Source: Christensenellales bacterium
Lineage (GTDB): Bacteria > Bacillota > Clostridia > Christensenellales > UBA3700
Direction of reading: 5' to 3'
Length of the DNA: 64,000 bases
NCBI GenBank assembly: GCA_051883395.1
Contig: JBJETQ010000002.1
Location: forward strand, 16,456 to 80,455
The notes beneath the pieces were generated by a model. It did not search any database and was not told the origin of the DNA. It was given only the letters and a program-made list of their open reading frames with translations. This document shows positions 10,634-59,074 of the stretch, in pieces (position 1 is the stretch's first letter; each line of letters begins with the position of its first letter). The translations under genes and the position numbers were made by a program.

Positions 10634-10785
10634 AATTCCCTCCCGAAAATATAATTTTCATTATAATATGAATTATATCATACCGTTTATCAAAAATCAA
10701 CATATAATATTGCCGAAAGATAAATTATTACCGCTTTACATATCTATCGGTTTATGTTATAATAGGTCAAAGGTGTCCGCACAAA

Positions 10786-15389: not shown

Positions 15390-16748
15390 TCAAGCATTTA
15401 CTTTCTTTGCCTTTTTCTTTTCTTTATAATCGGTAACTATCATCGCAATAGCGAAAGCAACTATAATTGCCGCAATATCTGCCAACAATATCGTCTTGAC
15501 GCTAAGTCCGTCAATCGACACAGGTTGAGCGGCTTGCAATTTGACAACGGCATTTTTGAGATTTTCAACGTCGTTGAATTCCGCAATAGCAGCATTCAAT
15601 TTTTTGGTACTTTCTTCAAGCCCTGCCGCTATAGAACTTACCATACTATCGGCGGTCGCTATCATTTTTTCTTTATCTTGTGCAGAAGCAGTAGAAAATC
15701 CCGAAGAAGCTCCGTATCCTGCCTGCAACTCTTCTATATAGGTCAATCTCTTATTTGCCGCAGCCTTTTGCGATTCCAAATCAAGCAGTTTGTTGACCAA
15801 TGCAAAATAGTTGGAGTCGTCATAGTTGAGCGTGCCGTCCTGACTTACTTTAATATTGCCAAGTCCTTCGGCAAATTTGTCCAGGCTTGCGGTTGTCGTT
15901 GTAATCATACTTGTCAAAGAAGAAATCTCGCTCTGAGTTTCGTTCTTTATCTGTTGCAAATAAGCTACTTCGCTGGAAGTAGTCGATTGACTCGATTCCA
16001 CGCCTGTTTCGCTGGCATAAGCTTTGAGCGCAATCAACATAGTCTCGTTAGTCTGCAATTCAGCCACGATATCCGAAAAAGTCATTTTCGACTCAGTCGC
16101 TCTGAAAGAAGGGTTGACCGCCGACATAGACTCCGCAACTTTGATAGAGTTGTTCATATTGTTTTCCATTGTATCAATTGCCTGAATATAATTATATTTC
16201 TTGACCGTGTCGGCACTAATCGACTGAGCATAGTTGGTATAACTATATTTATCTTTATAATTTTTGATAAACACGTCGCATATATTATCGAGCAATTCCT
16301 GTGTTTTCTCTTTCGAAAGGCCTATACTCTTACAATTTGAAAGGGTAACGGTATATGAGAAAGAAGTATTCACCTGACTGGTATCGCTAGCGTCGAAGTC
16401 GGCAGTAACCGAAATAGCGGATATTACACTTGGCAACAGTTTAATTCTTTCTTCTTCGTTCAAACCTATATTTTCAAGAGCCTGATTTACAACGTAGGTC
16501 GATTTTATTTCGCCACTCGGGTCAAACTGAGTGTTCCAAGGCGACATTCCCTTGTTGGCATATTCGTTGGCAAACATAACCTTAGCGTTATAGCTGTAAC
16601 CCTTGGTTGCGACAGAAACTATACCGAGTACCGTAGTAAGCACAACAACTGCAATCAGGGCATATACCAATATCCTTACTCCTGCCTTTTTTAGCTTTTT
16701 CCATATCATCTTGAAAGTCAACTCAGAGTTGTCATTTATCTCATCCAT
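15390..16748 (-). CDS. Bitopic membrane protein, Wzz/polysaccharide co-polymerase-like (putative)
   Basis: 452 aa with TM helices near both termini (VRILVYALIAVVVLTTVLGIV and ILLADIAAIIVAFAIAMIV) flanking a long, probably coiled, extracytoplasmic region. The call rests on topology only. Confidence 0.4.
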   Translation of the reverse strand: MDEINDNSELTFKMIWKKLKKAGVRILVYALIAVVVLTTVLGIVSVATKGYSYNAKVMFANEYANKGMSPWNTQFDPSGEIKSTYVVNQALENIGLNEEERIKLLPSVISAISVTADFDASDTSQVNTSFSYTVTLSNCKSIGLSKEKTQELLDNICDVFIKNYKDKYSYTNYAQSISADTVKKYNYIQAIDTMENNMNNSIKVAESMSAVNPSFRATESKMTFSDIVAELQTNETMLIALKAYASETGVESSQSTTSSEVAYLQQIKNETQSEISSLTSMITTTTASLDKFAEGLGNIKVSQDGTLNYDDSNYFALVNKLLDLESQKAAANKRLTYIEELQAGYGASSGFSTASAQDKEKMIATADSMVSSIAAGLEESTKKLNAAIAEFNDVENLKNAVVKLQAAQPVSIDGLSVKTILLADIAAIIVAFAIAMIVTDYKEKKKAKKVNA

Positions 16749-27622: not shown

Positions 27623-30600
27623 TCAACTTATCGTCAGACCGGTATCTTCTACGTAGATAAATCCGCCATAGTTGCTACCGCTTATCAGCGTATTTCCGCT
27701 GTGTCTTACGCCGTAACCGTCCGCTTTGACTACGTTGTCAAGCACGTCCTTGATAGTCCACTTGATAGGAGTGTCCAATGTGAGTGAACCGACCTTTTCG
27801 ATACTTATGATTTCCGTTTCCATAATCTTGGTTTTGAGAGAATCTGTCGAATCGAACAACGTGGTGTCTCCTTCTTCTACGGTGCGGTTACTGTTGATGA
27901 TGTCTTGGAGAATCTTTTGCTGCTCGGCTGTCATATTGTTGAACATCAACGTAGTCGTGTATTCGGTTGAGTCAATATCGATAAATGCCGTAACGTCTAT
28001 ACTTTCAGGAAGCAAGGTCGTGGTCTTGCTCATAAGCCCCGAAGTCTTGATATTGAGTGTCAGCAACATATACGACTCACTCTCGAACGTCATACCACTA
28101 AAACCGTCTTTGACTGCCGTGGCATTGATATAGTCAGGATTGAACATCAAAACCTGCTTATAAGTTACGTCCGAAGTGCCAAGTCCCAAAGCCGACGATA
28201 CGCCGCTGCTACCGTCTTCATTGTCAAGCAACGCTGCCGCAATATTACGGTCGCTGATTTCCATAGCGACTTCTCCGTGTGGAAGCGGAGTTGCAACATA
28301 TTGTGCGCTGACCTGTTCCGACGACATCTTGTCGTCAATGGCATTGATATTATCCTGGCCGACGACGTCCGTAAGAGTGAACAACGCCTTCATCATACCT
28401 TGGAAATCTGCTTCGCTAGGTTTTACCCCGTCGCTGTAAATGTTTTTGATTGCCAGTCCGTATATAGTGGAGAAGGTAATCGTACCGCCCTGTGTGTTGG
28501 CATCGATATCTGTGGTGGAATACTCCATCTGAGTTCCTGCCGTCATTTCGCCGAGTTTGTTCTTGACCTTGTCGGAAGCGTCGGCATTGATGTCGTCAGG
28601 CGTTACAGTCTTATCTGCGACAATCTTGAAAAGATTGCAGAATACGTCCAAATCGGCATCGTCCATATCGTTGATGGTAAAGGCGGTACATACTTCGCTC
28701 GTACCTACTTTTGACAAGTCTACGTCTACGACAATTGCCACACCGCTTGGCAGCAGAGTCGCATATTTACCTGCGCTTTCGGAAGAAATATTTGCCGTAA
28801 ATACTATGCGCATCGTGCTGGCGGACGTTATGGTCAGACTTGTCATCGATACGTGTTCCAATCCTTCTGCACTTATCGTAACGTCTCCGCTGAGCAGACG
28901 GGCAAGTTCACCGCCGCTTGCTTGCGGTTTGAGAGCCACGCCGTCGTTGACGCTTCTGGTATCGGCAGCCATTGCCTGACCGTCTATCATCGTGGCATAC
29001 TTGGTTGTGATTGTGGTAATCTGCTCAGATACGTCGCCAGTTGTGTTTATCGGTGTTTTGAGATAATATTTACTGTTGATTTCTTCGGCAAATCTGCTCA
29101 TATCCGTTGCGATATTGCTTTGCGACAATTCTTCCGGAATCACGTTGACTTTTTGCAATACGCTTCTCAGTTCCACATTGGACGGTTTGGACAATTCTCC
29201 TGCGTAAATCTGACTGATTGCTATATCGAATACCGTAGTGTTGAGATTCATCACTCCGTCGCCAAACGTTATATCGATAGTTCTGTCGGCTACTATGTCA
29301 TCCATAAAGCCATAGATGTTGTCTTCGAGAGTTTGTCTTACTCCTTCTGCCGTAACTTCATTTCCGCCAAGTTTGGTAGCCACGCTGAAAAAGTTGTTCA
29401 TCTGCTCGGTGGTCATTCCGTCAATATCGAAACTTGCACAATCGACGTCGGCGCCTTCAAGCTTTTGTCTCAGCAACGCCGTATCTACCGTTACGTTGAC
29501 GTAAACCTGTCTTGGTAACAATACGGAATATTTAGCATTTTCGCCAGTCAGCTGTATCTCGCCGCTGAGTTGCATTGTCATCTGTGTTGCGGTGATACGG
29601 GTAGAAACTACCTTGATGTTTTTCATGACGCTGACAACGTTGTCGAGCTTTCCGCTGGACTGGATAAGAAATCCCAGTTCTTCCTGAGAGAGCGACGGTT
29701 TCAACTCGTCGATGTCGGTAGTATCGGTTGCCATTTTGTTGACGTCTATACTCGTCTCAAAGTTGTTTTTGATAGTAGTTACGCTGTTGAACAGAGCTGC
29801 ACCGTCGGAAGGGTCCAGCGTGTCGGTAGTGATATAGTATTTGTTTTCCAACTCGGTTACAAAGCCGACTGCGCCGACGCTTACGTTGACGGTATCTGCT
29901 TCAAAGGTATATGCCGCTTTCAACATGTCGTGCAATTGAGCGTCGTCGACAACAGGGTTATTGCTTTCGTCTTTGAGCATTCCCAGTCCCGTCGCCGTCT
30001 CGAATATCGACGGCAATATACAGCCTGTGCTTGTAAATTCTATATCCGTACCGAGTTTTTCGTTGATTTTGGTAAGATTTTCTCTCACGCTGTCTTCAAG
30101 TTTTGTAGTAAGCTCCGATATATTGAAAGAACTTACGTCGATGCCTAGTCCCGAACACAGTTTGTTGAGATTGTCAAGCAATTCCAACGTCTGCTCTTTG
30201 GTACAGTTGTTGATACAAATCTCCGTCTCTTTTTCGGCGTCGGTCAGACTTAGTCTTGCCTTGATAAATATTTGTTCAGGCAATATCTGCGGCGCAAATA
30301 TGGCAATAAGCGAACCTTCTTCCGCCTTGCCTGCAATACTCTCCAATACGTCGACTGCAATGACTACTTCCAGCATTCCTTCCGTCTGGTCATAGCTCAT
30401 ATTGAGTATCGTTATAGGAAAAGCCGACGCTTCGCTGCTGCCTGATGAGAGCTGACTGTTGAGCAAACCTGCCATAGCCAGATAGGACATCGAAACTTTG
30501 TGATTGTCGGCAATATAACTGCCGCTGTCGTAATTGAGCGTAGCAAGATTAATCTTTTCGAGCATAGCGTCGTCCTGCATCAAGCTCGTTACACTACTGA

Positions 30601-31876
30601 AAACGTTGTCGGTGGTGATAAGGTCGTCGCTGTTATCAAATCCGTATTTTGCAGTAAAGTCATCTATAAATTCTTCTACGTTCTGATTGCGCAACTGAGT
30701 GGTATATTGTGCAACGCCGACTGCGGTAGCATCAGGCAACTTGAAGTCCCTGATGAGATACAAAAACTGTGCTTCGCCCAAGTCTACGTCCAATACGTTC
30801 ATAAGCGCTTCCACAGGTTTCATATCACAACCGGAATCGACGAATGATATTGGTATTACTTCGTTGAGTTTGGCAACAACGTCTTTGACGGCATTGTTGA
30901 TTGTCTGCATTATTGGCACTTCTCCGCCCACCACATCGTTGAGCAGATTTACCAGTTTATCCATCAATTCTTTGTCAATCTGATTGATGACGACGCTTGC
31001 AGAACCGTTTTCGTCATTAGGTCTGACGTCCATGCTTACAAAAATCGTCTTTGGCAACAAACCCGACACAAACGAAGGTACGGAAGTGTTTTTCAACAGC
31101 TCGGGAGCCAGCGACGCCACGTCGATTTTGATGGTGAGAGTAAGAACTACGTCTTCCAGCTTTGCACCCGCCACGCTCTCAATGATAATCTGCGAAATAC
31201 TTACGTGTTGGAGATATTGCGCATATTGGGATATCGACGCAAGCGGAGACGACTGGTCTGTCTCTCCTTCGGCAGACTGTGTGATATAATATTGGAATAC
31301 GCTGTCTATCAAAGCGGCGAACTGTTTGTCTGTTACTTCGAGAATATTCTCCTCTCCGCTGTAAGTAGCCAATGAAGAAAAATCGAACTCTATACTTTTG
31401 AGAAGTGCGTCAAGAGCCTCGTTGCCGGTACCTTCGGGAGCAGATTCCGCCAAAACCATTGGCGTAGATTCTTCTTCTTCCGATTTGCTTGAAGACGCTG
31501 CGTCCAGTATGTCGATTATGTCAATATCGCTGTCTTCCGACAAATAGGTCTTTTTCTTGAATTCGGTATAAAAATCGTCCAAATCTGATTGGGAATACGG
31601 ATTGGTAACGATTTCGCTTTCGTTGGCTTTGTACAAAGAAGTCAATACGTTGAAGGCTTCGGATATACTAAGTCCTACCTTTGGCTCGACGTATTTTCCC
31701 CAAGCCCATATTCCGCCGCCTGCAATACCTGCTACAAGCACCACAAAAATTACTACCAAGGTAACGATACAAGATAAGCAACCGTGGCTTTTCTTTTCTC
31801 GCTTTGGCTCCTTTTTGTTCTTGCGTTTGTCGTTTGGCGTTACGTCGTCCAAATCTATTTTGTTTTTCTTTGCCAT
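27623..31876 (-). CDS. Giant single-pass membrane protein with five internal repeats of an unrecognised module
   Basis: 1417 aa. A Lys-rich N-terminus precedes one TM helix (CIVTLVVIFVVLVAGIAGGGIWAW). Five modules share a beta-like strand, then (L/I)LP-x3-(hydrophobic/polar alternation)-D, then (I/F)N(N/D)(M/C)(T/D)xE/D...L. RBS GGGAG lies 7 nt upstream. Confidence 0.8.
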   Translation of the reverse strand: MAKKNKIDLDDVTPNDKRKNKKEPKREKKSHGCLSCIVTLVVIFVVLVAGIAGGGIWAWGKYVEPKVGLSISEAFNVLTSLYKANESEIVTNPYSQSDLDDFYTEFKKKTYLSEDSDIDIIDILDAASSSKSEEEESTPMVLAESAPEGTGNEALDALLKSIEFDFSSLATYSGEENILEVTDKQFAALIDSVFQYYITQSAEGETDQSSPLASISQYAQYLQHVSISQIIIESVAGAKLEDVVLTLTIKIDVASLAPELLKNTSVPSFVSGLLPKTIFVSMDVRPNDENGSASVVINQIDKELMDKLVNLLNDVVGGEVPIMQTINNAVKDVVAKLNEVIPISFVDSGCDMKPVEALMNVLDVDLGEAQFLYLIRDFKLPDATAVGVAQYTTQLRNQNVEEFIDDFTAKYGFDNSDDLITTDNVFSSVTSLMQDDAMLEKINLATLNYDSGSYIADNHKVSMSYLAMAGLLNSQLSSGSSEASAFPITILNMSYDQTEGMLEVVIAVDVLESIAGKAEEGSLIAIFAPQILPEQIFIKARLSLTDAEKETEICINNCTKEQTLELLDNLNKLCSGLGIDVSSFNISELTTKLEDSVRENLTKINEKLGTDIEFTSTGCILPSIFETATGLGMLKDESNNPVVDDAQLHDMLKAAYTFEADTVNVSVGAVGFVTELENKYYITTDTLDPSDGAALFNSVTTIKNNFETSIDVNKMATDTTDIDELKPSLSQEELGFLIQSSGKLDNVVSVMKNIKVVSTRITATQMTMQLSGEIQLTGENAKYSVLLPRQVYVNVTVDTALLRQKLEGADVDCASFDIDGMTTEQMNNFFSVATKLGGNEVTAEGVRQTLEDNIYGFMDDIVADRTIDITFGDGVMNLNTTVFDIAISQIYAGELSKPSNVELRSVLQKVNVIPEELSQSNIATDMSRFAEEINSKYYLKTPINTTGDVSEQITTITTKYATMIDGQAMAADTRSVNDGVALKPQASGGELARLLSGDVTISAEGLEHVSMTSLTITSASTMRIVFTANISSESAGKYATLLPSGVAIVVDVDLSKVGTSEVCTAFTINDMDDADLDVFCNLFKIVADKTVTPDDINADASDKVKNKLGEMTAGTQMEYSTTDIDANTQGGTITFSTIYGLAIKNIYSDGVKPSEADFQGMMKALFTLTDVVGQDNINAIDDKMSSEQVSAQYVATPLPHGEVAMEISDRNIAAALLDNEDGSSGVSSALGLGTSDVTYKQVLMFNPDYINATAVKDGFSGMTFESESYMLLTLNIKTSGLMSKTTTLLPESIDVTAFIDIDSTEYTTTLMFNNMTAEQQKILQDIINSNRTVEEGDTTLFDSTDSLKTKIMETEIISIEKVGSLTLDTPIKWTIKDVLDNVVKADGYGVRHSGNTLISGSNYGGFIYVEDTGLTIS

Positions 31877-32531: not shown

Positions 32532-35500
32532 TCAGAAATTGATAATGCCGCTGAACACTTCCACAGACGTACCCTTCAACAATACGCCGTCGTCGGTATA
32601 TCTGACTACCATATCGCCGCCTGATTGTTTGACGGTGATATCGGTATACTTTGGCAAGTAGCCGTTGAGAACTGCGCTGACCACTACCGCACAGCTTCCG
32701 CTGCCGCTGGCAAACGTTTCGCCGCAACCCTTGTCCCAGATACGAGCTTTGACGGTATGTCTGTCGATGACTTTTGCAAATTCGACGTTGGTTCGCTCTG
32801 GGAATATGCTGTCGTATTCCAGTTGGGAGCCGAGTTTGGATATATCTACGTTGTCAAGATGTTCTACAAACAATACGCAATGCGGATTGCCCATAGACAG
32901 GACGTTGAGCAGGTATTCCTTTCCGTCTACCGTGTAAGGAACGCCGATTGCGTTTTTGCCCGACAATTTGACAGGAATCTGCGCCGGTTTGAGTACCGGA
33001 GTACCCATATTGACGGTCATATACATAGCTTCTCCGTCCTGCGTCTTGATTTTGATGTCTCTGATGCCGGTAGGAGTTTCGACGGTGATGTCTAGTTTGT
33101 TGACTTTGCGGTTGTCGTAGAGATATTTTGCCACGCCGAACAAACCGTTGCCGCATACCGCTCCCTGCGAGCCGTCGCAGTTGAAAATACGCATTTTGGC
33201 ATCTGCTATCTCCGACTTTTCGATGAGAATAATGCCTTCCGCTCCCACTCCGAAATGTCTGTCGGACATTCTTACGGCAACGCCTTCCGGATTGTCTATG
33301 CTCACACCGTCCAGACAATCGAAGAAAATTCTGTCGTTGCCTGCGCTGTGCATTTTGACAAATTTGTGAGCCTGTTTGCCTTTGCGCAGCTTGTTGATGT
33401 CTACGAGTTCGGTATTATATTCGCTGTATCTGCTCATAAGACAGTTGGCAACGGCGTTGGCAGTATCTATTGACGTAAGACAAGGTATAGAACGTTCTAC
33501 CGCCTTTCTTCTTATCTTGACGCTATCACGGGTGGGAAGCTTGCCTTTGGAAGACGTGGAGATGATGTAATCTATCTTTCCGCTCTCGATGAGAGTAAGG
33601 TTGTTGTGTTCCATATTCTGATGTATTTTGTCCACCGTTACTACTTCCAAGCCCCTTTCTCTCAATACTCTTGCCGTTCCTTTGGTGGCGTAGAGAGTAT
33701 AGCCCAAATCTTCAAACTTCTGCGCAATATCTCCTATCTCCGCCTTGTCCTGATCTCGTACTGTGATGAATATTCCGCCCTTTTTCTTCATGCGGTATCC
33801 CGCCGCAACCAAACCTTTGAACAAAGCTTCTTCCAGCGTGTCAGCCAGTCCCAATACTTCTCCCGTTGACTTCATCTCAGGTCCTAACTGGGTATCTACG
33901 TTGACGAGCTTTGCAAATGAGAATACAGGAACTTTGACGGCAACGTAATTGGACTTAGGATACAGCCCTGTGCCGTAACCCATATCGGACAACTTTTCTC
34001 CAAGGATACATCTGGTGGCAAGGTCCACCATTGGCACGCCCGTTACCTTGCTGATATAAGGTATCGTACGTGAACTTCTTGGGTTAACTTCTATAACATA
34101 CAGTTCTTCTTCATAGATAAGGTATTGAATATTGACGAGTCCGACGGTATGCAGATTGATGGCAAGCATTTTGGAACACTCCACTATTCTTGCCAGCATT
34201 TCGTCGCTGAGATTCCAGGAAGGATAGACGGCAATCGAGTCTCCCGAGTGTATACCTGTTCTTTCGATGTGTTGCATTACTCCCGGAATAAGAATGTCTT
34301 CTCCGTCGCAAATTGCGTCTACTTCTATCTCCCGTCCCATAAGATATTTGTCTATAAGAACGGGGTTTTCTATCTTCTGAGAGAGTATTACGTCCATATA
34401 TTCGATGACGTCGGCGTCGGAATGGCAAACGCACATATTCTGACCGCCAAGCACGTATGACGGACGCAACAAGGTAGGATAACCTATCTTGTTGGCCACG
34501 TCCAAAGCTTCTTCTTTGGTCATTACTGTATAGCCGACAGGACGTTTGATTTGCAGTTTTTCAAGCAATTCGTCAAAGAGTTCTCTGTCTTCCGCCATAT
34601 CGATATATTCCGCCTGCGTGCCGAGAATTCTGATGTTTTTCTCCCTGAAAAGTTTGGTAAGTTTGATGGCTGTCTGACCGCCGAACGCAACCACCACGCC
34701 GTCCGGCTTTTCGGTGTTGATGATATTAAGCACGTCTTCGTTGGTAAGCGGCTCGAAGTAGAGTCTGTCTGCCGTGTCAAAGTCGGTTGATACGGTCTCG
34801 GGATTGTTGTTGACGATGACTACTTCGTATCCTTTGCGTTTGAGCGCCCATACGCAATGTACGGAAGCGTAGTCAAATTCTACGCCCTGACCTATACGGA
34901 TAGGACCGCTGCCGAAAACGATAACTTTCTTTTTGCCGTTGGAATGAGCTTTGATAAATTCTTCCGCTTCGTTTTCGCTGTCGTAGGTAGAATAGAAATA
35001 CGGCGTCTGCGCAGGAAACTCTGCGGCGCAGGTGTCAACCATTTTGTAAGAAGCATGGATAGGTCTGGTTATCTTTTTGCCGCTTATTCTTTCGATAGAA
35101 GAATCCAAAAATCCTATCTTTTTGGCTTGCAGATAGAGTTCGTCGTCAAGTTGTTGTGTGGCAAGCGCTCTTTCCATATCGATAATGTTGGCTATCTTGT
35201 TGAGAAACCATCTGTCTATTCTCGTCTTGGTGTGAATTTCGTTGACGGTTACTCCCCTTCTTAGCAATTCGTATATGACAAAAATACGTTCGTCGTCGCA
35301 AGAGAGCATTTTGTCCTGCAATTCCATATCGCTCATTGCCGCAATTTTTTTGTTGTAGAGAGTATCCATCGATATTTCCGCTCCCCTGACAGCCTTCATA
35401 AGCGCCTGCTCAAAGGAAGAACCGATGGACATTACTTCGCCCGTGGCTTTCATCTGAGTACCGAGTTGACGGCTGGCATAGAAGAATTTGTCAAACGGCC

Positions 35501-36578
35501 ACTTAGGAAATTTGACTACTATATAATCGACGCTTGGCTCGTTGCAGGCGTAAGTGCAACCCGTAACCGAGTTTCTGATTTCGTCAAGGGCGTATCCTAT
35601 GGCAATTTTGGTGGCAACCTTGGCTATCGGATAGCCCGTCGCTTTGCTGGCGAGCGCCGAACTGCGGCTCACTCTCGGATTGACTTCAATGACGGCATAC
35701 TGCATGCTGTCGGGGTGGAGAGCAAACTGAACGTTGCAACCGCCTTCGACTTTGAGTGCGTTGACTATTTTGAGAGCAGCGCTGCGCAACATTCCGAATT
35801 CTTTTTCGGACAAAGTAATTGCGGGAGCGACGACTATACTGTCGCCGGTGTGTACACCGACAGGGTCGACGTTTTCCATACTGCACACGGTGATGCAGTT
35901 GCCAAGAGAATCTCTGATGACTTCAAATTCTATCTCTTTCCAGCCGCTGATACACTTTTCGACCAATATCTGATGGATAGGGCTAAGGCGCAATCCGTTT
36001 TCTGCTATATCTTCAAATTCTTCCCTGTTGTGTGCAATGCCGCCGCCTGTGCCGCCTAACGTAAACGCAGGACGAATGATGACGGGATAACCGATTTGCT
36101 CTGCTACCATTACGCCGTCGTCCATAGTGTTGACGACTTCGGACGGAATGACGGGTTCATTGATTTGGGCAAGGGTATCCTTGAAACTCTGTCTGTCTTC
36201 CGCTCTGTCTATCGTCTCGGGATTAGCACCCAGAAGTCTGACTCCCATCTTGTCCAAAAAGCCTTCTTTTGCCAACTGCATGCTCAGCGTAAGCCCCGTC
36301 TGTCCGCCGAGAGTGGATAGCAGGCTGTCGGGACGTTCCTTTTCGATAATTCTTTTGACGGTGGTGAGAGTCAGCGGCTCGATATAAATTCTGTCTGCCA
36401 CCGCATTGTCGGTCTGAATTGTTGCCGGATTGGAATTGACAAGCACGACTTCGAGATTGTCTTCTTTGAGCGCACGACACGCCTGCGTTCCTGCGTAGTC
36501 AAATTCCGCCGCCTGTCCGATGACGATAGGTCCCGAACCGATAACCATTACTTTGTGTAAATCTTTGTTGAGTGGCAT
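32532..36578 (-). CDS. carB: Carbamoyl-phosphate synthase large subunit fused to a C-terminal DapF-like (diaminopimelate epimerase fold) domain
   Basis: 1348 aa. Residues 1 to ~1070 are colinear with CarB, with two ATP-grasp halves and an MGS-like tail ending NKLRKGKQA. The last ~277 aa (nt 32535-33368) carry DapF motifs FVKMHSAGND, NCDGSQGAVCGNG, SMGNPHCV and DKGCGETFASGSGSCA. Confidence 0.85.
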   Translation of the reverse strand: MPLNKDLHKVMVIGSGPIVIGQAAEFDYAGTQACRALKEDNLEVVLVNSNPATIQTDNAVADRIYIEPLTLTTVKRIIEKERPDSLLSTLGGQTGLTLSMQLAKEGFLDKMGVRLLGANPETIDRAEDRQSFKDTLAQINEPVIPSEVVNTMDDGVMVAEQIGYPVIIRPAFTLGGTGGGIAHNREEFEDIAENGLRLSPIHQILVEKCISGWKEIEFEVIRDSLGNCITVCSMENVDPVGVHTGDSIVVAPAITLSEKEFGMLRSAALKIVNALKVEGGCNVQFALHPDSMQYAVIEVNPRVSRSSALASKATGYPIAKVATKIAIGYALDEIRNSVTGCTYACNEPSVDYIVVKFPKWPFDKFFYASRQLGTQMKATGEVMSIGSSFEQALMKAVRGAEISMDTLYNKKIAAMSDMELQDKMLSCDDERIFVIYELLRRGVTVNEIHTKTRIDRWFLNKIANIIDMERALATQQLDDELYLQAKKIGFLDSSIERISGKKITRPIHASYKMVDTCAAEFPAQTPYFYSTYDSENEAEEFIKAHSNGKKKVIVFGSGPIRIGQGVEFDYASVHCVWALKRKGYEVVIVNNNPETVSTDFDTADRLYFEPLTNEDVLNIINTEKPDGVVVAFGGQTAIKLTKLFREKNIRILGTQAEYIDMAEDRELFDELLEKLQIKRPVGYTVMTKEEALDVANKIGYPTLLRPSYVLGGQNMCVCHSDADVIEYMDVILSQKIENPVLIDKYLMGREIEVDAICDGEDILIPGVMQHIERTGIHSGDSIAVYPSWNLSDEMLARIVECSKMLAINLHTVGLVNIQYLIYEEELYVIEVNPRSSRTIPYISKVTGVPMVDLATRCILGEKLSDMGYGTGLYPKSNYVAVKVPVFSFAKLVNVDTQLGPEMKSTGEVLGLADTLEEALFKGLVAAGYRMKKKGGIFITVRDQDKAEIGDIAQKFEDLGYTLYATKGTARVLRERGLEVVTVDKIHQNMEHNNLTLIESGKIDYIISTSSKGKLPTRDSVKIRRKAVERSIPCLTSIDTANAVANCLMSRYSEYNTELVDINKLRKGKQAHKFVKMHSAGNDRIFFDCLDGVSIDNPEGVAVRMSDRHFGVGAEGIILIEKSEIADAKMRIFNCDGSQGAVCGNGLFGVAKYLYDNRKVNKLDITVETPTGIRDIKIKTQDGEAMYMTVNMGTPVLKPAQIPVKLSGKNAIGVPYTVDGKEYLLNVLSMGNPHCVLFVEHLDNVDISKLGSQLEYDSIFPERTNVEFAKVIDRHTVKARIWDKGCGETFASGSGSCAVVVSAVLNGYLPKYTDITVKQSGGDMVVRYTDDGVLLKGTSVEVFSGIINF

Positions 36579-37636
36579 TATTTATTCTCCTTTGTCAAAT
36601 TGATAAATTGATCGTATATAAAATCGGTGGCAATCGGTCCGCCGTTGACGCCGGGCAGAAACTCGGTGGAGATTGCCCTGTAATCGTCGTATTGCAAACC
36701 TTCTACGCTTGCGTCGTTGACGTTGACGAAGGTAGGATGAAGCCCCTTTGCATCGCTTACGTCAATGTCGGTATTATGATTTTGATAAGTTACAAATAAG
36801 CGACCTGTATCGAGTTTTTTGGTAGGTTGATTGCCGTGATGTCCGTATTTCATTTCGACAATCTTTGCTCCGCATGACATTGCCATGAGCTTGTGTCCGA
36901 GACCTATGCCGAGCATAGGCAATTTTGTTCCTATCTGTCTGATGGTATCTATCACGCTTTCGCAATCTTTCACTCTATCGCTGCCTGCCGACCAGACTAC
37001 TCCGACAGGATTGCACACCATAATTTCCTGCACGCTACTGTCTGCCGACATTATTTTTACTTTCATGCCTTTATCTGCCAATGCTTCGGCTATATCGTAG
37101 GTCTCGCCCAAATCGACAAGACATACCGTTGCACCGCTGCCCATTTCTTTGCCTGCCTTGGCGCTCTTTTTGCTCGCCAGCGAAACCGTAGGAGTGTAAT
37201 TTTTCAACAGTTTCTCCTGTTCATTGTCAAGGCTTGGCGAAGTAGTGATGAGCGCATTGACGCAACCGTTGTCTCTGATGACTTTGGTGAGCATACGGGT
37301 ATCCACCCCCTTGAAACCGACTATTCCTTTGCTCTCCATAAAATTGTCGATAGCTCCGACGCTCCTGAAATTGGAAGGTTTGTCGCACACTTCTCTGACT
37401 ATTACGGCTTTGACGTGGCATTGTTTGCCTTCTACGTCGTCGTTGACGCCGAAATTGCCGAATGAAGGAAAAGTGCCGACAACGAATTGTCCCTGATAGC
37501 ATTCGTCAGTGAGCAACGTCATATCGCCGCCCATGGCGGTATTGAAAACAAGCTGTCCCACAACTTGTCTTTTTGCTCCGAAAGCCGTGCCTTCAAAGAC
37601 CTGGCCACTTGCAAGATACAAATAAAGTTTGTCCAT
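36578..37636 (-). CDS. carA: Carbamoyl-phosphate synthase small subunit homologue lacking the glutaminase catalytic triad
   Basis: 352 aa with a typical CarA N-domain (FNTAMGGDMTLLTDECYQGQFV...). The GATase region reads LGIGLGHK where GICLGHQ is expected, and STEFLPG where FQGHPE is expected. Its stop overlaps the carB ATG (TAATG). Confidence 0.8.
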   Translation of the reverse strand: MDKLYLYLASGQVFEGTAFGAKRQVVGQLVFNTAMGGDMTLLTDECYQGQFVVGTFPSFGNFGVNDDVEGKQCHVKAVIVREVCDKPSNFRSVGAIDNFMESKGIVGFKGVDTRMLTKVIRDNGCVNALITTSPSLDNEQEKLLKNYTPTVSLASKKSAKAGKEMGSGATVCLVDLGETYDIAEALADKGMKVKIMSADSSVQEIMVCNPVGVVWSAGSDRVKDCESVIDTIRQIGTKLPMLGIGLGHKLMAMSCGAKIVEMKYGHHGNQPTKKLDTGRLFVTYQNHNTDIDVSDAKGLHPTFVNVNDASVEGLQYDDYRAISTEFLPGVNGGPIATDFIYDQFINLTKENK

Positions 37637-37662: not shown

Positions 37663-37713
37663 ATAAAAAAAGAAGACTTCCAAAGCATATCCCAATGCCT
37701 TGCCCGTCTTCTT
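37663..37713 (-). terminator. Leader terminator (attenuator) upstream of carA
   Basis: The minus strand reads AAGAAGAC-gggc-AAGGCAT-tgggat-ATGCTTT-ggaa-GTCTTCTT followed by TTTTTAT. It lies between the predicted promoter and the carA ATG. Confidence 0.65.
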
Positions 37714-37762
37714 ACAGCATGTGCCGACTGTTGCGGCTTTTACTCTTGTAGGTTGGTCGCAT
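37712..37762 (-). promoter_or_regulatory. Candidate 16-codon leader ORF in the carA leader
   Basis: GGAG-5 nt-ATG CGA CCA ACC TAC AAG AGT AAA AGC CGC AAC AGT CGG CAC ATG CTG TAA, giving MRPTYKSKSRNSRHML with 3 Arg codons. The stop codon overlaps the 5' arm of the terminator. Confidence 0.35.
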
Positions 37763-37813: not shown

Positions 37814-37842
37814 ATGATACGACAATACTTGTCTGATGTCAA
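37814..37842 (-). promoter_or_regulatory. Sigma-A-type promoter for carAB
   Basis: The minus strand reads TTGACA-17 nt-TATCAT. Confidence 0.6.
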
Positions 37843-37914: not shown

Positions 37915-37944
37915 AAAAGCGAATTTTATTTGCGGAGGGACATA

Positions 37945-39366
37945 ATGCAAAAGAGTGCGTCGGATAGACTTCATGAAGAATGCGGTATATTCGGTATATA
38001 CGACAAGGCTGAATCCGGCAATATCGCAAGCACGGTTTACTACGGTCTGTTTGCTCTGCAACATCGTGGTCAGGAAGCGGCAGGTATCGCCGTCAATCAC
38101 AACAGAGAAATCACTCTATTGAAAGGTCTCGGTCTGGTCAGCGACGTATTTAAACATCAGGACCTTGCTTCTGTGCAGGGCGAGATAGCTATCGGACACG
38201 TAAGATATAGTTCGGGTCCTTTTAAAGGAGTTGAAAACGCTCAGCCAATTACGGTAAATTATGCCAAAGGCAATCTTACCGTGGCTCACAACGGCAACAT
38301 TACCAACTCTCAGGCGCTGAGAACGGCTCTGGAAAATCAGGGTGCTATATTCCACTCAAACAACGACAGCGAGATAATATGCTATCTCATTGCAAGAGAG
38401 AGATTGAAATGCAAGACGATAGAAGAAGCCGTTGCCAACGTGGTTCCTATGCTAAAAGGAGCATTTTCGTTGCTTATTATGAGTCCTACCAAACTCATTG
38501 CTTTGAGAGACCCGCTTGGTATCAGACCGCTGTGCATGGGTTATATCAACGAAAGCGTGGTGTTCGCAAGCGAAACATGTGCTCTGGAAACGGTGGGAGC
38601 AAAGTTTGAAAGAGATATCAAGCCCGGCGAAATACTGGTAGTTGGCAAGGACGATATGTACAGCGATATGCGTTATGCCACCGACAAGTCGGCGCTGTGT
38701 ATTTTTGAACACGTCTATTTTGCAAGACCCGACAGCATCATCGATAATCAAAGCGTAAACGAAGCTCGCATGAACGCAGGCAAACTGCTGGCTATTCAGT
38801 ACCCTGTGGACGCAGACCTTGTAATTGGCGTTCCTGACAGCGGTCTGTGCAGCGCAATTGGTTATTCGGCACAGAGCGGTATTCCTTACGGTACGGGTCT
38901 GATTAAAAACAGATATATCGGCAGAACTTTTATTCAACCTACTCAGGCAATGAGAGAAAGAAGCGTAGCATTGAAACTCAACGCTTTGGAAAGCAACGTC
39001 AGGGGCAAGCGTATAGTGATGATTGACGACTCTATCGTAAGGGGAACTACCCTGAAAAATATCGTCAAGCTACTCAAAACGGCAGGTGCAACCGAAGTTC
39101 ACGTACGTATCAGTTCGCCTAAATTCCTGTACCCTTGTTTCTACGGTACAGATATTCCTGACAGAAGCTGCCTTGCCGCAGTAAAATGGACGGAAGATGA
39201 AATAAGACAAAATCTCAATGCCGATACATTGGGCTTTTTGAAACTAGAAAGTGTAAAAGATATTGCTCCTTGCTCCACCGCAGGTTTCTGCACAGCTTGC
39301 TTCGACGGCAAATATCCTTCTTGCGTGGACAATACAATAGATTCGCAATTTATTGACAAAATGTAG
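37945..39366 (+). CDS. purF: Amidophosphoribosyltransferase
   Basis: Ntn Cys after a short propeptide (MQKSASDRLHEE-CGIFGIY), the PRPP loop VMIDDSIVRGTT, and the C-terminal Cys cluster CTACFDGKYP. The track start is TTG 37930. I prefer ATG 37945, preceded by GGAGGG. Confidence 0.9.
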   Translation: MQKSASDRLHEECGIFGIYDKAESGNIASTVYYGLFALQHRGQEAAGIAVNHNREITLLKGLGLVSDVFKHQDLASVQGEIAIGHVRYSSGPFKGVENAQPITVNYAKGNLTVAHNGNITNSQALRTALENQGAIFHSNNDSEIICYLIARERLKCKTIEEAVANVVPMLKGAFSLLIMSPTKLIALRDPLGIRPLCMGYINESVVFASETCALETVGAKFERDIKPGEILVVGKDDMYSDMRYATDKSALCIFEHVYFARPDSIIDNQSVNEARMNAGKLLAIQYPVDADLVIGVPDSGLCSAIGYSAQSGIPYGTGLIKNRYIGRTFIQPTQAMRERSVALKLNALESNVRGKRIVMIDDSIVRGTTLKNIVKLLKTAGATEVHVRISSPKFLYPCFYGTDIPDRSCLAAVKWTEDEIRQNLNADTLGFLKLESVKDIAPCSTAGFCTACFDGKYPSCVDNTIDSQFIDKM

Positions 39367-39374
39367 GTGATTAT

Positions 39375-40355
39375 ATGTATCAATCTCAACTTAACCTTAT
39401 TCAGACAGAAATAGCAATCAAAACTATCAAAGACAACTTTGAAAAGTTCTTGGCAGGCAACCTTAATCTGACCCGTGTTTCCGCTCCGCTGTTCGTTCTC
39501 AACGATACAGGTCTCAACGACAATCTCAACGGAGTTGAACGCCCCGTAGGTTTTGACATCAAACAGACAGGCAAAAAAGCCGAAGTGGTACACTCCCTTG
39601 CCAAATGGAAAAGATACGCCCTTCATTATTACGGATTTGAAGTGGACAGCGGTCTTTATACCGATATGAACGCAATACGCCGTGATGAAATATGCGACGA
39701 AATACATTCTTTGTACGTCGACCAATGGGACTGGGAAAGAGTTATCAGCGAAGAAGAACGCAATCTTGACTTTCTCAAAGAAATTGTCGGCAAAATATAT
39801 AGCGCAATCTATTCTACCGCTACCGTCATCGAAAGCATGTATTCGCTAGAAAACTTTTTGCCTAAGCAAATAACATTTATTACTTCGCAGGAGCTGGAAG
39901 ATATTTATCCTGATCTCGAACCAAAAGAAAGAGAAAACGAACTGGCAAAGCAACTGGGAGCAATATTTATTATCGGTATTGGAGACGATCTTAAATCGGG
40001 CAAACCGCATGACAAACGTGCTCCCGACTATGACGACTGGGCTCTCAACGGCGACCTTATAGTCTGGTATCCACAGCTCAATCGTTCTGTTGAGCTGTCG
40101 TCCATGGGCATAAGAGTAAACAAAGAAGCCATGCTCTATCAACTCAATAAACTCGGCGCAAGCGACAGGCTGGAACTTCCTTTCCACAAGGCTTTGATGT
40201 CGGACGAATTGCCACTAACGATAGGCGGCGGTATAGGTCAATCCCGTCTGTGCATGGTTCTGCTGCACAAGGCGCATATAGGCGAAGTGCAAAACTCTAT
40301 ATGGCCGGACGAAATGATTGAAGATTGCAGGAGTAAAAACATATTTTTGCTGTAA
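39375..40355 (+). CDS. asnA: Aspartate-ammonia ligase (asparagine synthetase A)
   Basis: 326 aa. N-terminus LIQTEIAIKTIKDNFEKFLAGNLNLTRVSAPLFV and C-terminus GGGIGQSRLCMVLL are typical of AsnA. Confidence 0.85.
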   Translation: MYQSQLNLIQTEIAIKTIKDNFEKFLAGNLNLTRVSAPLFVLNDTGLNDNLNGVERPVGFDIKQTGKKAEVVHSLAKWKRYALHYYGFEVDSGLYTDMNAIRRDEICDEIHSLYVDQWDWERVISEEERNLDFLKEIVGKIYSAIYSTATVIESMYSLENFLPKQITFITSQELEDIYPDLEPKERENELAKQLGAIFIIGIGDDLKSGKPHDKRAPDYDDWALNGDLIVWYPQLNRSVELSSMGIRVNKEAMLYQLNKLGASDRLELPFHKALMSDELPLTIGGGIGQSRLCMVLLHKAHIGEVQNSIWPDEMIEDCRSKNIFLL

Positions 40356-40411: not shown

Positions 40412-40484
40412 GATACAATCAGAAATACCACCCGAATAAGTGGGTGGTATTTGTGTTAGATTTTTATTAAGACGTTCTAAAAGA

Positions 40485-41741
40485 TTATTTCTTGACCAAA
40501 ACCTTTTTGAGACGAGCAAATCTTGGCAAGCCGTCTTCGAGCGGAGCTTTGCAATCGCCTTGAATGAGTGGCAAAGCGTAATCAACGTAGTCTTGCGAAA
40601 GCATTGTGCCGTCGTTGATAATCCACTCGGCAGGAATCTTCTTTTCGGTGTTGGCAGCCTTAGAAAGACCTACTACGCCGATTTTGCACTTATATTTGCC
40701 GTTTGCGCCCGTTGCTCTTTTGAGTACGACCATCTTGTCGGTGGTGCCTTTGACAGCATACTTAACTGCGGCTGCGCCCGACTTGAATGCTTCTTCTACG
40801 TCCACCTTGGAAGCAAGGTGTGCGCCGCATCTTTGCATAAGGCTGAATTCGATTGCTCTGGTCTTGTGTCCGAATTTCTCTTTGCACAGGTTGCTGAGTG
40901 CTGCGCCTACACCGCCGAGTTGAGCGTGTCCGAAACTATCTTTTGCAATGTTCTTGTTGAGAGTTTCTGCGATAAGTTCGCCGTTTTCGTTGGCGATACC
41001 TTCGGAGATGGCAATCATACATTTGCCGTTGTTCTCTGCAAGTTTTTTCTCTACGTCGGCAAGGAATTTGTCGGTGTTGAAAGGAACTTCCGGGAGATAA
41101 ATGAGGTCAGGTCCCAGTCCTTTGTAGTTTGCCAAAGAAGCTGCTGCGGTCAACCAACCTGCATGTCTGCCCATGATTTCTACTACCGTAATCATTGGGG
41201 TATCGTAAACGTTGGCGTCAAGTTTGAGTTCCATCATTGTAGTAGCAACGTACTTGGCTGCGGAAGCATATCCAGGACAATGGTCGGTACCGAAAAGGTC
41301 GTTGTCGATGGTCTTAGGTACGCCCATAACTCTCATTTCCCAATCGTTCTTTTTCATGAACTTACTGATTTTGTTGCAAGTATCCATAGAATCGTTGCCA
41401 CCGTTGTAGAAGAAGTATCTGATGTTGTATTTTTTGAATACTTCGAGCAATCTTCTGTAATCGGTGTCGTCCTTTTTGACGTCTTTGAGCTTGTATCTTA
41501 CCGAACCCAAAGCAGACGAAGGAGTATTTTTGAGAAGCATAAGTTCGCTCATGTCTTCTTGGGACATGTCGTAAAATTCTTCGTCAAGTACACCCTTGAT
41601 GCCGTGTGCGGCTCCGTAAACTGCGGTAATGCAGTCTTGTTTGAGTGCTTCGGTAAATACGCCCGCAGCACTTGCGTTGATAACGGATGATGGTCCGCCC
41701 GATTGACCGAACATCAATGCTCCTACCAATTTCTTTTCCAT
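40485..41741 (-). CDS. pfp: Pyrophosphate-dependent phosphofructokinase (diphosphate-fructose-6-phosphate 1-phosphotransferase)
   Basis: 418 aa with GQSGGPSSVINAS, GGNDS in place of the ATP-type GGDG, and PKTIDNDL, whose Lys is typical of PPi-PFKs. Confidence 0.75.
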   Translation of the reverse strand: MEKKLVGALMFGQSGGPSSVINASAAGVFTEALKQDCITAVYGAAHGIKGVLDEEFYDMSQEDMSELMLLKNTPSSALGSVRYKLKDVKKDDTDYRRLLEVFKKYNIRYFFYNGGNDSMDTCNKISKFMKKNDWEMRVMGVPKTIDNDLFGTDHCPGYASAAKYVATTMMELKLDANVYDTPMITVVEIMGRHAGWLTAAASLANYKGLGPDLIYLPEVPFNTDKFLADVEKKLAENNGKCMIAISEGIANENGELIAETLNKNIAKDSFGHAQLGGVGAALSNLCKEKFGHKTRAIEFSLMQRCGAHLASKVDVEEAFKSGAAAVKYAVKGTTDKMVVLKRATGANGKYKCKIGVVGLSKAANTEKKIPAEWIINDGTMLSQDYVDYALPLIQGDCKAPLEDGLPRFARLKKVLVKK

Positions 41742-41761: not shown

Positions 41762-42730
41762 TTAACTTCCTAATATTGTCGCTGTCTTATACAGCTCTTT
41801 GTTGAACACTCTCGGCATAGCCAACGCTTCGCTGATGTCGTCGTCTATGATTTGATTGTTGCGTATACCGACTACTCTACCGCCCTTGTCGGCTTTGAGT
41901 ACGTCAACTGCCCTTACGGCAAATTTGGCGGCAAGCATACGGTCCTGCATAGATGGCGCACCGCCCCTTTGGATATATCCGAGCGTCGTCGTCTTGATGC
42001 TTCCTTCAACTCCTTTTTCTTTGAGCTGAGCTTTGAGTTCTTCCGCCTTGCAGACGCCTTCGGCAAGTACGATGATGTCGGAAGTCTTGCCTAGCCTTTG
42101 ATTGCGTCTTATTCCCTTGACGACGTTGTCGATGTTGAACTCAACTTCCGGTACGAGTATAAGCTCAGCGCCACCGCCAATACCGGAATATAGTGCGATA
42201 TCACCGCATTTTCTGCCCATAACTTCGATTATACACACACGGTCGTGGGACGTCATGGTGTCTCTGAGATTGTTGATTGCTCCGAGAACGGTGTTGCAGG
42301 TAGTATCAAAGCCAAGCGTAAAATCGGTATATGCAAGGTCGTTGTCAATAGTACCCGGAATACCCACCGTCTTGACGCCGAACATATCGTACAGGTCTTT
42401 TGCGCCCCTGAAACTTCCGTCGCCGCCAATGACGACAAGTCCTTCGATGCCATAGTCGTCAAGAGCGTCTACCGCCCTTGCCATAACTTCCTTCTGGACA
42501 AACTCCGGACATCTTGCCGTTTTGAGCATTGTGCCGCCACGCTGAATGATGTCGGACACGCTACGTTTGTTCATCATGTTGATGCTGCCTTGAAGTAAGC
42601 CTACGTATCCTTGATTGATGCCGTAAACTTCAAGTCCTTGGTCAATGGCGTATCTGGTAACCGCTCTTATGCAAGCGTTCATACCCGGAGCGTCGCCACC
42701 GCTCGTCAAAACTCCTATTTTTCTCATCAT
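41762..42730 (-). CDS. pfkA: ATP-dependent 6-phosphofructokinase
   Basis: 322 aa with RKIGVLTSGGDAPGMNACIRAV, VVIGGDGSFRGA and PGTIDNDL. Its start overlaps the stop of the upstream TRAP-like gene (ATGATGA). Confidence 0.9.
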   Translation of the reverse strand: MMRKIGVLTSGGDAPGMNACIRAVTRYAIDQGLEVYGINQGYVGLLQGSINMMNKRSVSDIIQRGGTMLKTARCPEFVQKEVMARAVDALDDYGIEGLVVIGGDGSFRGAKDLYDMFGVKTVGIPGTIDNDLAYTDFTLGFDTTCNTVLGAINNLRDTMTSHDRVCIIEVMGRKCGDIALYSGIGGGAELILVPEVEFNIDNVVKGIRRNQRLGKTSDIIVLAEGVCKAEELKAQLKEKGVEGSIKTTTLGYIQRGGAPSMQDRMLAAKFAVRAVDVLKADKGGRVVGIRNNQIIDDDISEALAMPRVFNKELYKTATILGS

Positions 42731-58848: not shown

Positions 58849-58935
58849 GCCGAAGTGGTGGAATTGGCAGACGCGCCGGACTCAAAATCCGGTGATGGCG
58901 ACATCGTGCGGGTTCAAGTCCCGCCTTCGGCACCA
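58849..58935 (+). tRNA. tRNA-Leu (anticodon CAA)
   Basis: Cloverleaf read by eye: acceptor GCCGAAG/CTTCGGC, anticodon stem CCGGA/TCCGG with loop CTCAAAA, a long variable arm, T-loop GGTTCAAGTCC, and an encoded CCA. Confidence 0.9.
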
Positions 58936-58985: not shown

Positions 58986-59074
58986 GCAGATGTGGCGGAA
59001 TTGGCAGACGCGCTAGATTCAGGTTCTAGTGAAAGCTTTTTTTCATATGGGTTCAAGTCCCTTCATCTGCACCA
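58986..59074 (+). tRNA. tRNA-Leu (anticodon CAG)
   Basis: Acceptor GCAGATG/CATCTGC, anticodon stem CTAGA/TCTAG with loop TTCAGGT, a long variable arm, T-loop TTCAAGT and an encoded CCA. There is one T-T mismatch in the T stem. Confidence 0.8.

Follow-up and report, generated by a model that had tools for sequence, protein, structure and literature searches.

Bacterial carbamoyl phosphate synthetases (CPSs) are held to be glutamine-dependent, and in 2021 all bacterial CPSs known so far were stated to be of this kind, in a paper whose case for an ammonium-dependent form consists of genetic hints only (PMC8121099). According to the same source, CarB of Escherichia coli alone is an ammonium-dependent CPS, ammonium is abundant in the gut, and Bacteroides thetaiotaomicron is argued by Liu et al. 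to alternate, according to gut ammonium, between CarAB, which depends on glutamine, and the orphan CarB2, which depends on ammonium (PMC8121099). This proposal for CarB2 was the only ammonia-dependent bacterial CPS in the literature searched. Tunnel-blocked or perforated E. coli mutants show normal activity with ammonia, and in human CPS1 a glutaminase-like domain persists that is dead, its catalytic Cys being changed to Ser294, with the ancestral tunnel blocked at the equivalent of Gly293 and an alternative external path proposed for NH3 (PMC4655335). Here we describe carA' (36578..37636, minus strand), a gene for a CarA homologue of 352 amino acids (aa) in a stretch of 64,000 nucleotides, hereafter the window, of contig JBJETQ010000002.1 from a Christensenellales bacterium (GCA_051883395.1). 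CarA' consists of a CPSase small-chain domain and a dead class-I glutamine amidotransferase (GATase)-like domain, and it probably serves, without catalysis of its own, as a scaffold subunit in a CPS that would use free ammonia. No description of a triad-less bacterial CarA or PyrAA was found in the searchable literature, in which subscription journals are little covered, so that a prior mention is possible.

CarA' is a full-length member of the CarA structural family with both domains in the expected order, PF00988 CPSase_sm_chain at aa 6-130 (E 1.6e-39, profile positions 1-126 of 126) and PF00117 class-I GATase at aa 173-346 (E 5e-25), both assigned with Pfam. It passes the model NF009475 'carbamoyl phosphate synthase small subunit' (307.8 bits, cut-off 221) and falls just under the 'glutamine-hydrolyzing' equivalog TIGR01368 (299.9 bits, cut-off 307.35). 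The NCBI name of the protein, 'carbamoyl phosphate synthase small subunit', omits 'glutamine-hydrolyzing', which shows that the NCBI annotation pipeline already sets such proteins apart, by score. The register of the catalytic triad was derived from phmmer against E. coli CarA (1c30_B/1cs0_B), from MAFFT with 77 homologues and from MAFFT with 150 cluster representatives, and all three alignments place Gly245, Leu327 and Gly329 of CarA' at Cys269, His353 and Glu355 (E. coli CarA numbering). The Gly245 codon (36902..36904, minus strand) occupies the nucleophile position in the elbow LGIGLGHKL, which reads fgiCLGHQL in E. coli, and the Leu327-Pro328-Gly329 codons (36650..36658, minus strand) occupy the positions of His353-Pro354-Glu355 in EFLPGVNGGP, which reads qgHpEaspgp in E. 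coli. A shifted triad was rejected, as none of the three alignments offers another Cys, His or Glu, whether in the elbow or in the HPE segment. The first-pass annotation of this DNA had read both motifs exactly so, and its claims that all three triad residues are substituted, that the N-terminal domain is normal and that glutamine cannot be hydrolysed are borne out, with a loss that goes deeper than it had noticed because glutamine-binding residues are replaced as well. In the glutamine-binding and oxyanion set S47, G241, G243, Q273, N311, G313 and F/Y314, five of seven positions have changed (S47 to C46, G243 to D220, Q273 to K249, G313 to N288 and F314 to T289; MAFFT), while G218 and N286 keep G241 and N311. 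A class-I amidotransferase that lacks the Cys nucleophile cannot form the gamma-glutamyl thioester. With no Cys nucleophile in CarA', glutamine hydrolysis by this subunit is therefore ruled out, a prediction from sequence that we hold with high confidence. In the E. coli CarA structures, Ser47 binds the alpha-carboxylate end of glutamine, and for this reason Cys46 is unlikely to be positioned as a substitute nucleophile.

The loss of the whole triad and of several binding residues could point to a decaying pseudogene or to an annotation or assembly artefact, as could the several-fold faster evolution of CarA' relative to CarB (within the clade, the GATase-like domain is 51-74% identical and CarB 91-95%). 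Against this, the identical CarA' protein is on record in an NCBI Christensenellales bacterium metagenome-assembled genome (MAG) and in an independent Logan assembly, hence the sequence is not an assembly artefact. The relatives in the clade (P0002-P0008, loci L001-L004 and L008-L016), at 72-74% and 52-53% identity, all have Gly, Leu and Ser or Gly at the triad positions, and the open reading frame (ORF) is unbroken, at 352-356 aa, in every clade locus, from independent assemblies. A genome scan found six GTDB species-level genomes of the clade, which together with the window gives at least seven species-level lineages; the six are gut-derived MAGs labelled Christensenellales or Clostridia (HGM, UMGS, Hadza, roe-deer rectum). 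The ratio of nonsynonymous to synonymous substitution rates (dN/dS; Nei-Gojobori, unsaturated pairs only, dS 0.24-0.6) is 0.12-0.145 in the GATase-like domain of carA' and 0.035-0.063 in its N-terminal domain, compared with 0.015-0.018 in carB and 0.012-0.046 in the dapF domain. The dead GATase-like domain is thus about 8-fold more relaxed than carB and clearly still under purifying selection. In the sister lineages with a canonical triad, the GATase domain and CarB diverge about equally (0.53-0.65 vs 0.62-0.78). An AlphaFold2 model of CarA' built on a 70-sequence alignment is confident throughout (mean pLDDT 94.2, pTM 0.92, no disordered segment), and the stop/start overlap with the downstream gene and the leader are conserved. 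Decay is effectively refuted by the unbroken ORFs, the dN/dS values far under 1 and the confident model, to which the coupling to an intact CarB is added, and a pseudogene or artefact is scarcely credible.

Compared with Foldseek, the CarA' model superimposes on E. coli CarA over both domains (TM 0.91), and the next best match is the dead glutaminase-like moiety of human CPS1 (5dou/5dot, TM 0.84-0.87). To judge from its sequence and model, CarA' would thus resemble CPS I in keeping an inactive glutaminase-like moiety. The former glutamine pocket is preferentially invariant within the clade, at 9 of its 12 positions as against 69 of 172 in the rest of the domain (one-sided Fisher p = 0.02), with C46, D220, N288 and L327 newly fixed. 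Moreover, most other triad-less CarAs largely keep G241, N311, H312 and Y314, and about half of them Q273, though the Cys and His are gone. Such a pattern could arise if the old pocket had become a sensor or regulator that binds another small molecule and controls CarB allosterically, or if it served as the entry port for ammonia. However, the elbow and the oxyanion strand belong to the fold core, whose structural demands may explain their conservation, the sample amounts effectively to only three lineages, and the sequence points to no ligand. We regard such a neofunctionalised pocket as improbable.

The partner of CarA' is encoded immediately downstream. The stop codon of carA' overlaps the start codon of the carB::dapF fusion by one base in the sequence TAATG (36576..36580, minus strand), in the window as in all clade loci, and this overlap couples carA' translationally to carB::dapF. 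The fusion ORF (32532..36578, minus strand) encodes 1348 aa, a length also found in the clade relatives. Its CarB part, aa 1 to about 1060 (33399..36578, minus strand), is a canonical CPS large subunit (NF003671, 1476.7 bits) that aligns with E. coli CarB (1bxr_A) over the whole length and keeps both ATP-grasp active-site motifs. The alignment to E. coli CarB further shows that the tunnel gate (C232, A251, A314), the second site (E761, H788, E841, N843) and most of the UMP/IMP site, including K954, T974, T977 and K993, are kept. The conservation was read from the alignments, and the roles and numbers of these residues follow the E. coli literature. Because the motifs, the gate and the allosteric residues are all kept, the complex looks like one with a working large subunit and nucleotide-type allostery, and the retained UMP/IMP site suggests regulation by nucleotides, not by N-acetylglutamate.

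We propose that CarA', as a pseudo-glutaminase, would assemble with the functional CarB::DapF into a carbamoyl phosphate synthetase, being kept for stability, for CarB activation or for tunnel architecture. Because CarA' is predicted to be unable to hydrolyse glutamine, the enzyme would take free NH3 as its nitrogen substrate from the ammonia-rich gut, and the gut origin of the clade MAGs fits such a high-ammonia niche. The NH3 would enter by a route other than the old glutaminase active site. The tunnel-lining position A309 is Tyr in all clade members, P358 is Gly and, in three of four representatives examined from the clade, one residue at G293 is missing; M36, G292, N294, G359 and P360 are kept. 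The Tyr at A309 and the deletion at G293 are compatible with closure of the ancestral ammonia tunnel in the clade and bring to mind the blocked tunnel of human CPS1. They also speak against an open tunnel into which another amidotransferase or deaminase, docked on CarA'-CarB, could channel NH3. A supply in trans of this type, which the first-pass annotation had raised, has in its favour that the small subunit and part of the tunnel lining are retained, but no conserved candidate partner gene occurs in the neighbourhood of the clade loci and we know of no precedent for it, and we hold it very improbable. The ammonia-using enzyme that we favour would give a gut Clostridia bacterium a type of CPS so far described mainly for animal CPS I. 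The coupling to an unusual CarB-DapF fusion that the first-pass annotation had pointed out is real, and the CPS-I-type logic that it had invoked is, to judge from sequence, the best available explanation.

Several points weigh against this explanation. The use of ammonia is deduced only from the absence of glutaminase chemistry, and the Km of E. coli CPS for ammonia is very high. Efficient use of NH3 may require adaptations in CarB, and none were identified. A second canonical CPS elsewhere in the genome could supply most of the carbamoyl phosphate, and the pocket, being more conserved than its surroundings in the domain, could have taken on the binding of a new ligand in place of a purely structural role. 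Finally, the change of a catalytic Cys in the fused DapF domain of the clade may indicate that the complex has been remodelled beyond a simple ammonia-dependent CPS.

The DapF domain, aa about 1072-1348 of the fusion (32535..33365, minus strand), is well recognised (TIGR00652, 229 bits, cut-off 114.65), and the first catalytic Cys of diaminopimelate (DAP) epimerase is present in it as Cys1142 in 'VCGNG' (Cys73, Haemophilus influenzae numbering). The catalytic Cys pair is incomplete, as the position of the second Cys (Cys217, H. influenzae numbering) is taken by Ser1291 (codon 32706-32708, minus strand) in 'ASGSGSC' as against 'ACGTGAC', and all solved DapFs carry Cys there. This Ser is fixed in every clade locus, while the canonical fused sister lineages have Cys; among the nearest DapF homologues, 118 of 120 have the Cys/Cys pair, and the sole other Cys/Ser case is a partial sequence belonging to this clade. 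The loss of the second DapF Cys co-occurs with the loss of the CarA triad in one operon. The fused domain is under strong purifying selection (dN/dS about 0.04) and may be an altered-function or slowed epimerase. No data on DapF C73S/C217S mutants were found in the literature searched.

The sister lineages place the loss in an evolutionary frame. The CarA triad is Cys-His-Glu (C-H-E) and the second DapF Cys is in place in the fused operons of Clostridiales UMGS1387 (L017, ACGTGAC, with argD, argF and purA), a Christensenellaceae (L018, with argG and argF), a Clostridia (L020) and a Eubacteriales (L021). Candidatus Scatosoma (L019, with argJ) has a dead G-M-E CarA and keeps the second DapF Cys, and the window clade, labelled Christensenellales or Clostridia, combines a dead G-L-(G/S) CarA with Ser in DapF and a divergent purF and asnA. 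The CarB-DapF fusion predates the triad loss and is more widespread than it. As L019 is nearer to the canonical sisters than to the window clade, at least two losses are indicated within the fused-operon group. Outside the dead-CarA clade, many MAGs of Christensenellaceae and other Clostridia encode fusions of CarB with DapF (1339-1353 aa), and fused carA-carB::dapF operons usually adjoin arginine genes, namely argD/argF, argG/argF or argJ. In L017, a class-I/II aminotransferase that could be DapL directly follows the fusion. In B. thetaiotaomicron, carAB and dapLF share one ammonium-regulated locus (Liu et al. 2021, PMC8121099).

Because the triad is canonical where this operon occurs in sister lineages, carA' of the window is the positional orthologue of a normal carA that has lost its chemistry and not obviously an extra paralogue. 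This bears on the question of whether the dead-CarA CPS is an ammonia-specialised or auxiliary second enzyme beside a canonical CarAB encoded elsewhere, which would be compatible with the enzyme proposed here and would change its importance, the loss of the glutaminase then being of little physiological consequence. Many Bacillota carry two sets of CPS. The window covers only 64 kb of the genome, MAGs have gaps, roughly one in four of the nearest cluster representatives is a canonical C-H-E CarA, and B. thetaiotaomicron uses two CPS forms according to the ammonium supply (PMC8121099). On the other hand, neither the window nor the +/-10 kb around each of 36 related loci contains a second carA or carB, carA' takes the slot in the operon that a canonical carA fills in the sister lineages, and in other lineages the triad-less carA lies inside the pyrimidine operon itself. 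A specialised second CPS is in our view rather unlikely, and we retain the ammonia-using CPS with a scaffold CarA' as the preferred interpretation.

Absence of the triad extends far beyond the clade, a point that the first-pass annotation had missed, as it had the change in the DapF domain. An exhaustive phmmer search was run against 1.84 billion cluster representatives, and among the 150 nearest 50%-identity clusters taken from it 37 are Cys-His-Glu and 109 lack the Cys. The position of the Cys is Gly in 90 of these 109 dead clusters and mostly Asp, Asn or Ala in the others (Glu and Ser also occur), the His position shows almost no residue preference in the Cys-less clusters (the commonest reaches 14%), and the named members among the nearest clusters are MAGs of uncultured 'Clostridia bacterium'. 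The N-terminal domain of CarA is the part that docks on CarB in E. coli CPS. Its conservation is about the same in the dead (0.54) and the canonical group (0.57), whereas the GATase domain is relaxed in the dead group (0.47 vs 0.60; 109 vs 37 representatives). In the dead group, release is specific to the triad and to S47, Q273, K202 and a small number of further positions, while the fold-core glycines, H272, H312 and G292 remain conserved.

The gene neighbourhoods of these relatives suggest that triad-less carA genes fill genuine biosynthetic slots, in pyrimidine operons or, in L019, beside argJ. Thus an Erysipelotrichaceae MAG (L005, G-Q-E) has the order pyrB-pyrC-carA'-carB, a metagenome contig (L006, D-Q-D) pyrC-carA'-carB, the cultured Oceanobacillus rekensis PT-11 (L023, NZ_MTBQ01000003.1, CarA at L023:9980-11101, G-Q-E) pyrB-pyrC-carA'-carB-pyrK-pyrD-pyrF and a Rikenellaceae MAG (L033, SUZW01000005.1, CarA at 9923-11071, E-N-E) pyrC-carA'-carB-pyrK-pyrD-pyrF, while Clostridia and Acutalibacteraceae MAGs carry unfused carA'-carB pairs (L007, G-T-L; L034, G-E-N). 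O. rekensis PT-11 is a tractable cultured member of the Bacillaceae with a predicted dead-glutaminase CPS, and the related O. polygoni (L025) is Cys-His-Glu. The pyr operon of L033 is of Bacillota style on a contig binned as Bacteroidota, which could reflect faulty binning or horizontal transfer. When about 150 representatives are placed in a neighbour-joining tree, it is star-like and does not separate one origin from many, with canonical groups nested among the dead ones. A single origin of all triad-less CarAs is disfavoured, not disproved, by these nested groups and by the varied residues at the Cys position (G, D, N, A, E, S), and the same two observations favour repeated loss of the triad across the CarA family.

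Upstream of carA', a promoter-like site TTGACA-17-TATCAT (37814..37842, minus strand; 11 of 12 matches, a consensus match only) precedes a leader with an upstream ORF (uORF) of 16 codons (MRPTYKSKSRNSRHML*; 37712..37762, minus strand) that has its own Shine-Dalgarno sequence and a stop codon abutting the stem of a terminator-like hairpin with a U-run (37665..37712, minus strand). A uORF of 16-17 codons is found at the same position in 8 of 8 clade loci, and constraint at the peptide level is suggested by synonymous differences between species. The hairpin, a putative attenuator, is conserved in the 5' leader and shows a compensatory change in L004 (GAAGAC/GTCTTC to GAATAC/GTATTC), and folding gives a minimum free energy of -49.6 kcal/mol with z -2.84. 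Apart from a chance miRNA match (E = 0.43), the leader has no match in Rfam, and a riboswitch or a known RNA was rejected on this ground. The element looks like a leader-peptide or translation-coupled attenuator, for which Arg or UTP may be raised as the signal.

Divergently from carA' lie purF and asnA (37930..40355, plus strand), which form its context and not part of the enzyme. The assignments of purF (37930-39366, plus strand; TIGR01134, 498 bits) and of asnA for an aspartate-ammonia ligase (39375-40355, plus strand; TIGR00669, 360 bits) are sound, and the back-to-back position of carA' with these genes was correctly described in the first-pass annotation. The pair is divergently upstream in all clade loci with enough upstream sequence and is specific to the clade. 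The further suggestion that the locus is tuned to ammonia does not hold up well, because PurF keeps its glutaminase Cys, and the sister operons adjoin arginine genes instead. As Cys18 of PurF aligns with Cys1 of mature Bacillus subtilis PurF, the N-terminal nucleophile, PurF is a glutamine amidotransferase and glutamine still serves as an amide donor next door. In a test of the 'high-ammonia module', ddh was looked for in the 64-kb window and not found, and as to dapL the class-I aminotransferase of the window (329-1519) scores far under the LL-DAP aminotransferase cut-offs.

Other features of the window were recorded alongside. Directly downstream of carB::dapF, an ORF of 1417 aa (27623-31876, minus strand) starts with a segment rich in lysine, after which comes a hydrophobic stretch, and a large ORF is found at this place across the clade (1415-1702 aa in L001, L004, L008, L011 and L013), with orthologues on record that have no Pfam match. 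Two adjacent phosphofructokinase-like genes, judged from translations only, encode a 418-aa type that is maybe pyrophosphate-dependent (40485-41741, minus strand) and a 322-aa PfkA type (41762-42730, minus strand); the 416-aa ORF antisense to the former (40440-41690, plus strand) is almost certainly spurious. The 452-aa ORF at 15390-16748 (minus strand) matches no Pfam family at E <= 1e-5. Two tRNA genes (58849-58932 and 58986-59071, both plus strand) are the only Rfam matches above the gathering score in the window.

With a conserved dead CarA and an intact CarB, the idea of an ammonia-dependent CPS in bacteria gains a concrete test case that can be cloned. CarA' could also reveal a role of the small subunit beyond glutamine hydrolysis, in stability, CarB activation or tunnel architecture, and the family offers a recurring natural experiment on the retention of pseudoenzyme subunits in multi-enzyme complexes. 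Because the trait is present in about three quarters of the nearest clusters and in pyr and arg operons, models of nitrogen flow in the gut microbiome (ammonia versus glutamine) and the annotation of EC 6.3.5.5 could be affected. A wider proposal is that many uncultured gut Clostridia, together with some members of the Bacilli and Bacteroidota, have made their biosynthetic CPS ammonia-dependent in repeated, independent events, with the glutaminase kept as a scaffold, and that the window clade has also rewired a CPS-DAP nitrogen module for high ammonia through the change of the DapF Cys to Ser; we put it forward tentatively, as somewhat short of an even chance. If true, prokaryotes would have a widespread equivalent of CPS I, and the all-glutamine view of bacterial CPSs would be overturned.

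In comparison with known systems, the closest analogue in function is vertebrate CPS I (EC 6.3.4.16), which like CarA' has a folded glutaminase-like moiety without the catalytic Cys and an altered ancestral tunnel, and which uses free ammonia as we propose for CarA'-CarB. Unlike the single fused polypeptide of CPS I, CarA' and CarB are encoded by two ORFs overlapping by one base, and the window CarB carries a C-terminal DapF domain and keeps residues of the UMP/IMP type, whereas CPS I absolutely requires N-acetylglutamate. Human CPS1 has lost only the Cys, whereas CarA' has lost all three triad residues together with binding residues. The loss in CarA' is evolutionarily independent of that in CPS I, so that CPS I is an analogue and CarA' is not a member of its family. 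With E. coli CarAB (EC 6.3.5.5; TIGR01368/TIGR01369) the window pair shares the two-gene organisation, the folds and the catalytic and gate residues of CarB, but CarA' is without the equivalents of Cys269, His353, Glu355, S47, G243, Q273, G313 and F314 and scores under the TIGR01368 cut-off, and CarB is fused to DapF. B. thetaiotaomicron CarB2 (BT3866) likewise comes from a gut anaerobe, and direct formation of carbamoyl phosphate from ammonium is proposed for it (PMC8121099), as we propose here for CarA'-CarB, although CarB2 is an orphan large subunit and the window CarB has a translationally coupled small-subunit gene. Nearest by descent are the sister carA-carB::dapF operons (L017, L018, L020 and L021), which have the same fusion, overlapping or abutting genes and a CarB that is 62-72% identical; they keep Cys-His-Glu in CarA and Cys/Cys in DapF, whereas the window clade has lost the triad and the second DapF Cys.

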